DNA of 64,000 bases. Source: a virus. Shown here piece after piece: positions 7,058 to 8,466 of the stretch; position 1 is the first letter of the stretch; the number at the start of each line of letters is the position of its first letter. The notes beneath the pieces are model-generated. The model was not told the DNA's origin. It did not search any database and saw only the letters and a list, made by a program, of their open reading frames with translations. The stretch lies in IMG/VR virus record IMGVR_UViG_3300008117_000010, positions 1 through 64,000 of that record; one strand, given 5' to 3'. The translations under genes and the position numbers were made by a program.

Positions 7058-7132
7058 GTTATTATCTTTCTATTAAGATAACGATTACCATTTAGAGAAC
7101 AAAACAAAATAGAAAAAATGTAAATAGATTTT

Positions 7133-7231
7133 ATCCCTCTGCACTCAGTTGTACCTGTAAGTTTGATACCTCATGGGTATTACATGGTTAGTTCCTACAA
7201 CTGCTCACCCTTGGGAAGTGAGAATGGTGCA
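7133..7231 (-). ncRNA. Three-way-junction RNA element, copy A (42-nt core)
   Basis: TGCAC-CATT-CTCAC..GTGAG-CAGTTGTA-[core]-TACAACTG-AGTGCAGAGG on the minus strand. Confidence 0.65.
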
Positions 7232-7431
7232 TTAATCCGGTCCTTAAGGCATATGGACCAAAGCCTGCATTGACTACTGAGCTATGCTAACGCCAGCAAC
7301 TTACTGGATATTTACCTGGTTAAAGGAAAGGTAACAATACTATATTAATTCCTTTGGATTTAGTTGTAATAATTACCACATTGTCCTTTTTGATTAGACC
7401 GTTGTATTCGTTTCGGGATTATTACAACTAC

Positions 7432-7677
7432 TTATCCAAAGTTCAGTTCATCAAATCTGTCATCGTCTTCATCAGACATGAAAGACTCATTAAATTCATT
7501 AGCCATATCACCATTAAGTTGAAATTCAACTTTAGGTTTAGCTTGTAATTGTTGCAATACTTTTTCGCGATTACTAATAATCATTTTAAGAGTATTGCGG
7601 AGATGATTAATATCCATATCATCAACGGATATTAACTTACCATTACGCATTTTCCAATAAACAATATTATCTTCCAT
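7432..7677 (-). CDS. Hypothetical phage protein
   Basis: WKMRNGKLISVDDMDINHLRN; lies between RNA elements A and B. Confidence 0.75.
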   Translation of the reverse strand: MEDNIVYWKMRNGKLISVDDMDINHLRNTLKMIISNREKVLQQLQAKPKVEFQLNGDMANEFNESFMSDEDDDRFDELNFG

Positions 7678-7704
7678 AAGAGTATCATTTTAATAATATA
7701 AATT

Positions 7705-7913
7705 ATTTCTCTGCACACAGTTGTAATAGTATATTAGTGACGCTCTTGTCCTTAATACCTTGCTCTCAAAACACAACTATGTTGATTAACATACAACCTC
7801 AAGCCCAATATGGCATAGTCAGGTTTACATAGTACTTAATGTGGAGGCTTACTAGTAAGATAAGTCTAATCTTACTATTACAACTGCTCACCCGAAGGTT
7901 AGTGCAAAGAAAT
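7705..7913 (-). ncRNA. Three-way-junction RNA element, copy B (143-nt core)
   Basis: 12-bp outer stem with a G.U pair, ACC-TTCG-GGT side hairpin, 13-bp CAGTTGTAATAGT/ACTATTACAACTG stem. Confidence 0.7.
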
Positions 7914-7919
7914 ACGCTA

Positions 7920-8235
7920 ATATCAAGTGGATAATCACTATCAATCAACTAATCTGTGGTTGCTGAACAGACTTAAACAGCAGTAGATTTTACAGTTCTA
8001 CTCAACTGACCACACTAGGCATCATAAATTTAATAATGAATTATCTCATTATTGACCAAGATTTATTTAGCCTAAACACCTTTCGGTGTTAAATGTGTGG
8101 TGATTTCTTACATTTTTACCCATAAGACGGTCAAATCTTATGAGTGTAAGTCATCAATAAAGATACATAAAATTGGATGTGTTAAAACTCAAAACATCGT
8201 GTTTTAAGTTACCTTGGATTACCTAGGTTATTGTT
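7920..8235 (-). ncRNA. Multi-hairpin non-coding RNA candidate
   Basis: No ORF of 60 aa or more; nested inverted repeats (CACAC/GTGTG, TAGGC/GCCTA, AATAATGA/TCATTATT, AACACC-GAAA-GGTGTT on minus, CATAAGA/TCTTATG). Confidence 0.5.
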
Positions 8236-8241
8236 AGAATA

Positions 8242-8376
8242 ATCCCTCTGCACTCAGTTGTAATAGTACCATAATATTCAATGCTTATTAGGCAATTCTA
8301 GCTTTATGGATTTAGTCTTGTTTATACTCATAAACTATTACAACTGCTCACGATTGTGAGAATAGTGCAGAGGAAT
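8242..8376 (-). ncRNA. Three-way-junction RNA element, copy C (66-nt core)
   Basis: 13-bp outer stem, CTCAC-AATC-GTGAG side hairpin, same 13-bp inner stem as copy B. Confidence 0.7.
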
Positions 8377-8466
8377 AATTAATTCATTACAAAAACTTCG
8401 TTATCAGTTCTTGAATGTGCAAATTCCAAAGAAGGAGTCACATAAGTAACTCCGTTCCTTGTGTAC

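Follow-up and report, generated by a model that had tools for sequence, protein, structure and literature searches.

A putative non-coding RNA island with a variant twister-type element and related hairpins in a freshwater crAss-like phage genome

The element-bearing stretch of the phage genome

The DNA analyzed here, referred to as the window, is made up of the first 64,000 nucleotides of a phage genome (IMG/VR record IMGVR_UViG_3300008117_000010) that is 110,526 bp long and bears direct terminal repeats. The phage is a freshwater crAss-like phage. Its terminase shares approximately 26% identity with its counterparts in crAss-like phages of Bacteroides, Flavobacterium and Cellulophaga, its portal and capsid proteins match PHROG families, and near-identical DNA is present in freshwater and lake metagenomes of several studies. 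The genes on the minus strand at 1–10 kb include those for a helicase, an exonuclease and a 2OG-Fe(II) oxygenase. Positions 8376 to 7133 form a 1.3-kb stretch with a single plausible small gene, an open reading frame (ORF) of 81 amino acids (7677–7432). With a probability of roughly 0.6, this stretch is, on the minus strand, an island of non-coding RNAs within the early or replication arm of the genome, which is punctuated by four members of one twister-derived RNA family, namely a variant twister ribozyme (copy C), two disarmed copies (A and B) and a simpler relative (element D).

An earlier note on this DNA had described three copies of a conserved RNA scaffold on the minus strand, and all three are found at the positions given there. 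The motif TACAACTG-N-GTGCAGAG occurs exactly three times and on the minus strand only (7153–7137, 7725–7709 and 8262–8246), with a chance expectation of 0.25 and none of 100 shuffles reaching three occurrences. Likewise, GTGAGCAGTTGTA occurs exactly three times, again only on the minus strand and at the corresponding upstream sites. The outer stem, the side hairpin and the inner stem that had been proposed are reproduced by the predicted folds of all three copies. The distances from CAGTTGTA to TACAACTG are 42, 153 and 76 nt, and the core lengths of 42, 143 and 66 nt given before agree with these values once the extra ATAGT/ACTAT pairs are counted. As had also been noted, the cores share no similarity except for chance matches of 7–8 nt; they fold like shuffled cores (z from -0.95 to -1.6). 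The proposal that the structure is formed by RNA of the minus strand, in the direction of the genes, holds as well, with both a U.G pair in the outer stem of copy B and the UUCG loop existing on this strand only. The copies differ from each other: copy C has a 9-nt loop (UUCCCAAGG) and an outer TGCAC/GTGCA stem of only 5 bp, whereas copies A and B have tetraloops and outer stems of 12–13 bp.

A fourth element, D, lacks the side hairpin. Its outer stem is CUUUGGAU/AUCCAAAG; its inner stem, UAGUUGUAAUAAU/AUUAUUACAACUA, resembles helix P5 of the other copies. The 3′ half of the element is also present in contig L072. A covariance model (CM) built from relatives, CM R1, yielded no copy beyond these elements when searched over the whole 110.5-kb genome; it misses copy B because of the 153-nt insert of that copy. 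All features are listed in Table 1.

Table 1. Coordinates of the RNA elements and of their structural parts in the window.
Feature	Position	Strand	Description	CM R1 score
Copy A	8242–8376	minus	zipped derivative	58.1 bits
ncRNA#1	7914–8241	minus	328-nt structured non-coding RNA between A and B	
Copy B	7705–7913	minus	zipped derivative; 28 nt between its end and the ATG of the 81-aa ORF	
Element D	7370–7440	minus	simplest relative; begins at the 81-aa ORF's stop codon	31 bits (E 3e-6)
ncRNA#2	7237–7345	minus	conserved structured RNA ending at P1 of copy C	
Copy C	7133–7236	minus	full-form twister-type ribozyme, putative	95.3 bits
Copy C, P1	A7236-U7235 with A7134-U7133	minus	outermost helix	
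Copy C, scissile bond	U7234|A7233	minus	predicted	
Copy C, P2 and L2	7231–7227 with 7144–7140	minus	L2 CAUU	
Copy C, P4	7222–7218 with 7208–7204	minus	side hairpin	
Copy C, L4	7217–7209	minus	UUCCCAAGG	
Copy C, P5	7203–7196 with 7153–7146	minus	closes the 42-nt core; followed by A7145	
Copy C, GA	7139–7138	minus	after P2	
Copy C, GGG	7137–7135	minus	partner of C7215-C7213 in pseudoknot T1	

Copy C and its relatives in IMG/VR

Twister is a self-cleaving ribozyme, reportedly described by Roth et al. in 2014. The earlier note had recognised no known ribozyme core in any of the elements, which turned out to be wrong for copy C, as this copy carries the twister architecture. Read from 5′ to 3′, the full form consists of P1, U-A-A, UGCAC, CAUU, CUCAC, UUCCCAAGG, GUGAG, the inner stem, A, GUGCA, GA, GGG and the second strand of P1. 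Copy C and the full-form family thus have the twister helix order P1-P2-P4-(P5) and its internal loop, made up of U|A-A in the 5′ strand and GA-GGG in the 3′ strand. In twister, an A.G pair extends P2, pseudoknot T1 is formed by four nucleotides of L4 with L1, and in T2 two L4 nucleotides that are bulged pair with a conserved GC (PMC5408937). The GA-GGG that follows P2 here fits this description of L1, T1 and the sheared A.G pair. The canonical consensus of P4 and L4 is CCGG-UCCCAAGC-CCGG, written CCGGUCCCAAGCCCGG, and P5 is optional, has no consensus and is of unknown role (bioRxiv 10.1101/2024.07.11.603121). The P4 loop of the family contains UCCCAAG, identical to this canonical P4-L4, and its CCC can form a pseudoknot with the GGG of the tail; as in twister, P1 may be very short and P5 is variable. 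The layout of copy C is probably that of a type-P1 twister without P3 and with an optional P5 arm.

There are also differences to the canonical twister. One L4 position is a G in this family instead of a C, P2 has five covarying pairs instead of four, and T2 would be CC:GG instead of GC:GC. The base of P5 is usually CAGUUGUA/UACAACUG and carries 24–168 nt, expanded forms of the family hold large inserts inside the P4 loop, and copies A, B and D are without the catalytic loops.

The relatives form one family with a common structure. Scanning IMG/VR for the 3′ motif TACAACTGNGTGCAGAG, a search which fixes the 3′ half of the element, yielded at least 120 contigs. Among the matches listed, almost all contain upstream of this motif the series UAAUGCACCA-(3–5 nt, yww)-CUCAC-UUCCCAAGG-GUGAG-CAGUUGUA, which is followed by 24–168 variable nucleotides. 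A large number of copies in viral metagenomes, stems that covary and cores that are hypervariable had been named beforehand as a supporting outcome, and this is what was found. In an alignment of 28 members, 90.4% of the cells are paired compared to 83.3% in shuffles (none of 500 shuffles reached the observed value), and sliding the partners against each other lowers the pairing to 32–47%. P4 is paired in 99.3% of the cells and shows double changes in all five pairs, its variants being CUCAC/GUGAG, UCUAC/GUAGA, CCUGA/UCAGG, UCAGC/GCUGA and CUAUC/GAUAG. The short P1 helix is formed by the bases just before UAA with those just after GGG, and its two pairs nearest to the loop are present in 25 and 23 of the 28 members with several types of pairs. 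The U-A-A before P2, the GA-GGG after P2 and the UCCCAAG of L4 are invariant or nearly so.

T1 is paired in 100% of the cells. Compensatory versions are CAC:GUG (L081, L083, L099 and L095:613) and CCA:UGG (L095:2528), and as the CCC of the loop and the GGG of the tail thereby change together in independent lineages, T1 is directly evidenced. A CM run on 0.96 Mb of fetched loci yielded 118 hits, including copies without the search word. In the hits free of the search word, P2 shows the compensatory pairs UGCGU/ACGCA and UGUAC/GUACA, and P5 shows CAAUUGUA/UACAAUUG, CAGAUGUAC/GUACAUCUG, CAGUAUG/CAUACUG and CUACU.../...AGUAG. In copy C and the family, the essential stems P1, P2 and P4 thus stand in twister order and are all supported by covariation. 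The genomic arrangement is shared, too: 99 of 109 elements run in the same direction as the ORF that follows them, many of them 23–55 nt before its ATG. Other near-complete genomes of this phage group contain one or two copies each.

Taken together, the family can be assigned to the twister class with good confidence, and self-cleavage of copy C, as judged from its sequence, appears likely, if less so than the class assignment itself. Copy C and its relatives are probably an uncatalogued variant of this known ribozyme class and not a catalogued member, as the twister models of Rfam give no score and T2 is not demonstrable.

Some relatives (L049, L123, L016, L044, L116 and others) are expanded forms, in which the 5′ strand of P4 is separated from the UCCCAAGG loop by a large insert. 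This insert contains two further conserved helices, GUGGAUAUAAAGACUUCUUAG...CUAAGAUGUGAAACCAC and CUGAUUAA...UUAAUCAG, each closing a variable region of its own, so that up to three variable slots exist per element.

Other known RNAs and DNA elements were considered for this scaffold. The junction sequences and the helix order do not fit to hammerhead, hepatitis delta virus (HDV)-like, pistol or hairpin ribozymes, group I introns or integron attC sites. A short resemblance to CRISPR repeats (Cas13b/Cas12a) was dropped once the twister mapping explained the conserved bases.

Zipped copies, flanked RNAs and neighboring genes

In copies A and B, the GAGGG (GAGAAA in copy B) pairs with a pyrimidine-rich 5′ flank without any internal loop, which is why they are called zipped here. 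The outer helix of copy A (8376–8365 with 8253–8242) comprises 12 uninterrupted base pairs and takes in the GAGGG; it is followed by the junction UAUU, a P4 of CUCAC-AAUC-GUGAG and a P5 of CAGUUGUAAUAGU/ACUAUUACAACUG, with neither an L1 loop nor a CCC in the hairpin loop. The outer helix of copy B, an extended UUUCUUUGCAC/GUGCAGAGAAA, comprises 13 bp with one U.G pair and leads into UAA-CC-UUCG-GG-UGAG and then into the same 13-bp P5 base as in copy A, here with a distal part of 143 nt. Both copies keep the three-way junction of P2, P4 and P5 but are without the L1 loop, the CCC-containing L4 and T1; element D is also without the T1 pseudoknot. Having lost both catalytic loops, copies A and B would not be able to cleave as twisters and are presumably inactive as ribozymes.

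Zipped relatives exist elsewhere. The fetched loci contain 12 such members, seven of which are zipped, while five keep an AA/GA loop with a CCC/GGG or CUCU/GAGA helix. The form UAA-CC-tetraloop-GG-UGAG was found in 14 IMG/VR contigs by a scan that fixes the 5′ half only; there, the 3′ strand is GUGCAGAGGG or a compensated variant of it. Many pairs in these contigs are U.G pairs, and as these exist in the sense strand only, the zipped pairing is selected at the RNA level. The zipped form is rarer than the full form.

From their sequence, copies A and B are most likely stable hairpins which delimit ncRNA#1 and the 5′ untranslated region (UTR) of the 81-aa ORF, either as a substrate for a double-strand-specific RNase of the host or as an end-protecting structure. 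Sites of the T7 type are duplexes of about 20 bp that are cut by RNase III, thereby separating mRNAs. Like these hairpins, which are conserved between early genes and separate RNAs, copies A and B offer a stackable duplex of about 25 bp; unlike the simple T7 hairpins with their internal loop, they are three-way junctions that are clearly homologous to the ribozyme. RNase III-like processing, which had been suggested for the payloads of all copies, is thus a live option for copies A and B, whose duplex length is compatible with it, but not for the other copies.

As candidates for active ribozymes, A and B were rejected both as twisters, with uninterrupted outer helices of 12 and 13 bp and loops of AAUC and UUCG, and as twister-sister (RF02681). 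Twister-sister superficially resembles the zipped forms by its P1-L1-P2 arrangement and a multi-helix junction without pseudoknots, but it requires both an L1 loop, in which cleavage takes place at a C-A step, and an SL4 loop of 9 nt with 11 conserved nucleotides (PMC5660989). Copies A and B contain tetraloops and neither the L1 loop nor the conserved SL4 loop, and there is no Rfam match. At L086:13040–13100, a zipped element that retains the loop is immediately preceded by the 3′ end of a tRNA (T-arm GGTTCGAATCCTG and acceptor strand), and tRNA-like T-arm sequences are also present inside the variable regions of L051 and L109.

The RNA between copies A and B, ncRNA#1, has no match in Rfam. 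The sole other contig found for it in the IMG/VR scans is L134, which is 80% identical. Among its 93 predicted pairs, 80 are unchanged between the two, six have one-sided changes, seven are compensatory and none is broken. A variant in a metatranscriptome contig adds six further compensatory pairs, and the one-sided changes keep the pairing on the minus strand only. In L015 and L006, the sequences that separate paired zipped elements share no homology with ncRNA#1. In relatives, ncRNA#1 and some of the elements precede a common AAAAAACUCAAUAACUU(U/C)CCAAGAUGU sequence (L134:2640–2680, L015:12653–12680 and the ends of RNA contigs at window positions 7130 and 7913). This sequence can form a hairpin CUCAA...UUGAG with a loop containing UUUCCAAG and may be a further variant element.

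Directly upstream of copy C, ncRNA#2 consists of a hairpin H1, a hairpin H2 (CCAG-UAAGUUG-CUGG), a variable H3 and, at its end, an H-type pseudoknot with the stems S1 (7266–7263 with 7250–7247) and S2 (7259–7255 with 7243–7239). Both free pairs of this pseudoknot covary (C-G/U-A/U.G and G-C/A-U/G.U). The whole RNA is 93% identical to L124, where the flanking genes have no match at the DNA level. In all 14 IMG/VR hits of the pseudoknot sequence, a full-form twister lies 3–5 nt downstream. A tRNA at this site was considered and rejected; ARAGORN found none upstream of copy C, and inspection by hand revealed neither an acceptor nor a T arm.

The 81-aa ORF between B and D belongs to no family and gave only weak IcmQ noise. 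As its DNA is conserved at 68% identity in contig L127, it is probably a real small gene, with element B as its 5′ UTR. A comparison of the region against 50,697 phage records by blastn yielded no match. The only tRNA reported by ARAGORN is a tRNA-Leu at 864–948, with none within the element region, and a scan for sigma-70 promoters and terminators revealed nothing near the elements that exceeds the expectation from shuffles. A terminator-like hairpin GGAGUUAC-UUAU-GUGACUCC followed by UUCUUUGG is located at 8453–8434 on the minus strand, just past the stop codon of a 91-aa ORF (8742–8467) and inside an overlapping 51-aa ORF (8534–8379), which is probably spurious.

Alternative explanations and proposed role

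Several observations weigh against an island with an active twister at copy C. P1 of this copy has only 2 bp, and the A-rich 3′ strand of the canonical L2 is here a single A. The bases of the T2 candidate CC:GG are invariant except for one U.G, and C20 also covaries as part of the fifth P2 pair. At E ≤ 10, no match was obtained with the twister-P1 model RF03160 on the whole genome, with any Rfam model, including twister P3/P5 and twister-sister, on the region or copy C, or with the Rfam twister models on natural short-P5 members of the family. Rfam searches of the window, its sub-slices and the short-P5 relatives, both at the gathering threshold and at E ≤ 10, gave noise only (mir-2807, snoRNAs and CRISPR-DR33 with E 8.8). 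As these models are silent, the twister assignment rests on mapping by hand and on covariation. What supports a function of copies A and B is maintained pairing only. Metatranscriptome assemblies of three studies do hold pieces of the island, but neither ends nor strand can be read from their contigs, and some of this material could be DNA. These contigs cover only conserved RNA parts (7130–7233, 7876–8175 and 8234–8351) and come from relatives, as at 7913/7911 and 7130 they continue into sequence that is unlike the window; they are therefore no proof of transcription or cleavage, and their lack of coverage of the coding flanks is uninformative.

Part of these observations would fit an alternative in which none of the elements is catalytic. 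All four, copy C included, would then be hairpins processed by proteins, either by host RNase III in the manner of T7 or at sites of a phage protein, and the twister likeness of copy C would be convergent or vestigial. This would agree with the lack of an Rfam twister match even for members with a short P5, and with the duplex of about 25 bp that the outer helix and P5 provide in copies A and B. That A, B and D, though without the catalytic loops, retain the P5 base together with the P2/P4/P5 junction also suggests a value of the junction in its own right. Yet, the CCC:GGG pairing covaries at two positions in independent lineages and is not needed by a simple hairpin site, L4 has its UCCCAAG in common with twister, and U-AA and GA-GGG stand exactly at twister positions. 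Moreover, the base of P5 is not constant in the unbiased CM hits. We consider this alternative unlikely.

A further explanation concerns the zipped forms, i.e., copies A and B and about 20 relatives. These might not be decayed copies but a distinct class of RNA evolved from twister, with a scaffold free of pseudoknots whose conserved P2/P4/P5 junction is recognized by a host or phage protein for excision or protection of the bracketed RNAs, or, in the case of the loop-keeping members, with a twister that cleaves without pseudoknot. This is distinctly improbable; if true, ribozymes and pseudo-ribozymes would together form a punctuation system for the release of phage small RNAs, namely ncRNA#1 and ncRNA#2.

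Even less can be said for the idea of the earlier note that the elements are a system of small-RNA cassettes, with a constant handle and variable payloads (guides, decoys or antitoxin mimics) that are excised, circularized or loaded on a protein. The cores are indeed hypervariable with lengths of 24–168 nt, orthologous sites in close relatives can hold unrelated cores (copy C compared to L093), and a weak GUGA/GUAA...AUAG pattern recurs within them. Nevertheless, P5 can be a bare 7-bp hairpin with a loop of 3–4 nt (L095:2528–2611), which leaves no room for a payload, and two CM hits have a short hairpin as inner stem. As the inner stem covaries and can shrink to such a hairpin, the handle is a normal helix with covarying pairs, and the core can be dispensed with; what had been called handle and payload are the twister core with the base of an optional P5 and the distal part of P5. 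The antisense targets that had been proposed for the cores were searched for in the phage genome, where only chance matches of up to 13 nt were found. With members of short P5, no targets in the phage genome, no more structure in the cores than in shuffles and a handle accounted for by the ribozyme core, the payload idea fails. The one or two copies in other near-complete genomes speak against a cassette system, too, and we regard it as very unlikely.

The variable cores are instead rather probably the unconstrained distal ends of the P5 arm. The core of copy C and that of L093 are unrelated, though the upstream RNA is 93% identical, and such an abrupt replacement between close relatives is most simply explained by a lack of constraint together with recombination among copies that share the flanks of P5. 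The weak pattern within many of the P5 cores, in which the 5′ strand is soon followed by GUGA/GUAA/GUAG and the 3′ strand is preceded by AUAG/AAUAG (alignment columns 62–75 and approximately 95–125), may represent a small structural motif such as a GNRA-like turn or an internal loop.

Least probable of all is a feature at the DNA level, i.e., mobile or recombinogenic inverted-repeat modules (like miniature inverted-repeat transposable elements, or hot spots of recombination) that move between phages and rearrange the cassettes next to them; near-identical blocks of 17–30 nt in many otherwise unrelated contigs and flanks that switch abruptly at the element borders (L134 compared to the window downstream of ncRNA#1, and the RNA contigs at 7913/7911 and 7130) are in line with it, but the compensatory changes and G.U pairs function in the sense strand only, 99 of 109 elements have the orientation of the downstream gene, the pseudoknot covaries, and modular shuffling by recombination at conserved RNA genes fits the ribozyme as well.

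If the stretch is an RNA island with a variant twister at copy C, it would be transcribed together with the minus-strand genes. Copy C would fold via the CCC:GGG pseudoknot and cut at its predicted scissile bond, which would fix the 3′ end of ncRNA#2 with a 2′,3′-cyclic phosphate. The downstream mRNA, coding for a 39-aa ORF, the 2OG-Fe(II) oxygenase and others, would then start with a 5′-OH and a compact ribozyme fold. Copies A and B and element D would serve as non-catalytic structural punctuation around ncRNA#1 and the 81-aa ORF. All these roles in RNA processing are proposed from the arrangement of the elements.

The theta ribozymes, which are minimal HDV-like ribozymes adjoining phage tRNAs (Kienbeck et al., 2024, PMC10879173), offer a parallel. 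There as here, small self-cleaving ribozymes (predicted in the present case) occur in uncultured phages, and their cleavage site immediately adjoins the 3′ end of a structured small RNA. As the cleavage site of copy C sits at the 3′ end of ncRNA#2 and a twister follows this RNA in 14 of 14 cases, the analogy suggests that the ribozyme makes the 3′ end of the upstream RNA. The two systems differ in the ribozyme class, HDV-like there and twister-like here, and in the upstream RNA, which is no tRNA here according to ARAGORN and Rfam.

The purpose of genomically encoded small ribozymes is a long-standing question, and among the roles under discussion for those of bacteria and phages is that they process polycistronic transcripts (PMC6765202). 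The family described here would be a widespread phage variant of twister that was missed by the standard catalogue. For annotators, it implies that repeats with a constant handle and a variable core between phage genes can be ribozyme arms. The fixed pairing of ribozyme and ncRNA#2 (14 of 14) gives a testable function, the making of RNA 3′ ends by a ribozyme, in parallel to theta ribozymes and tRNAs. Finally, disarmed copies beside an intact one would show which features of the fold persist after a loss of catalysis, and they hint at a second, non-catalytic use of the scaffold.

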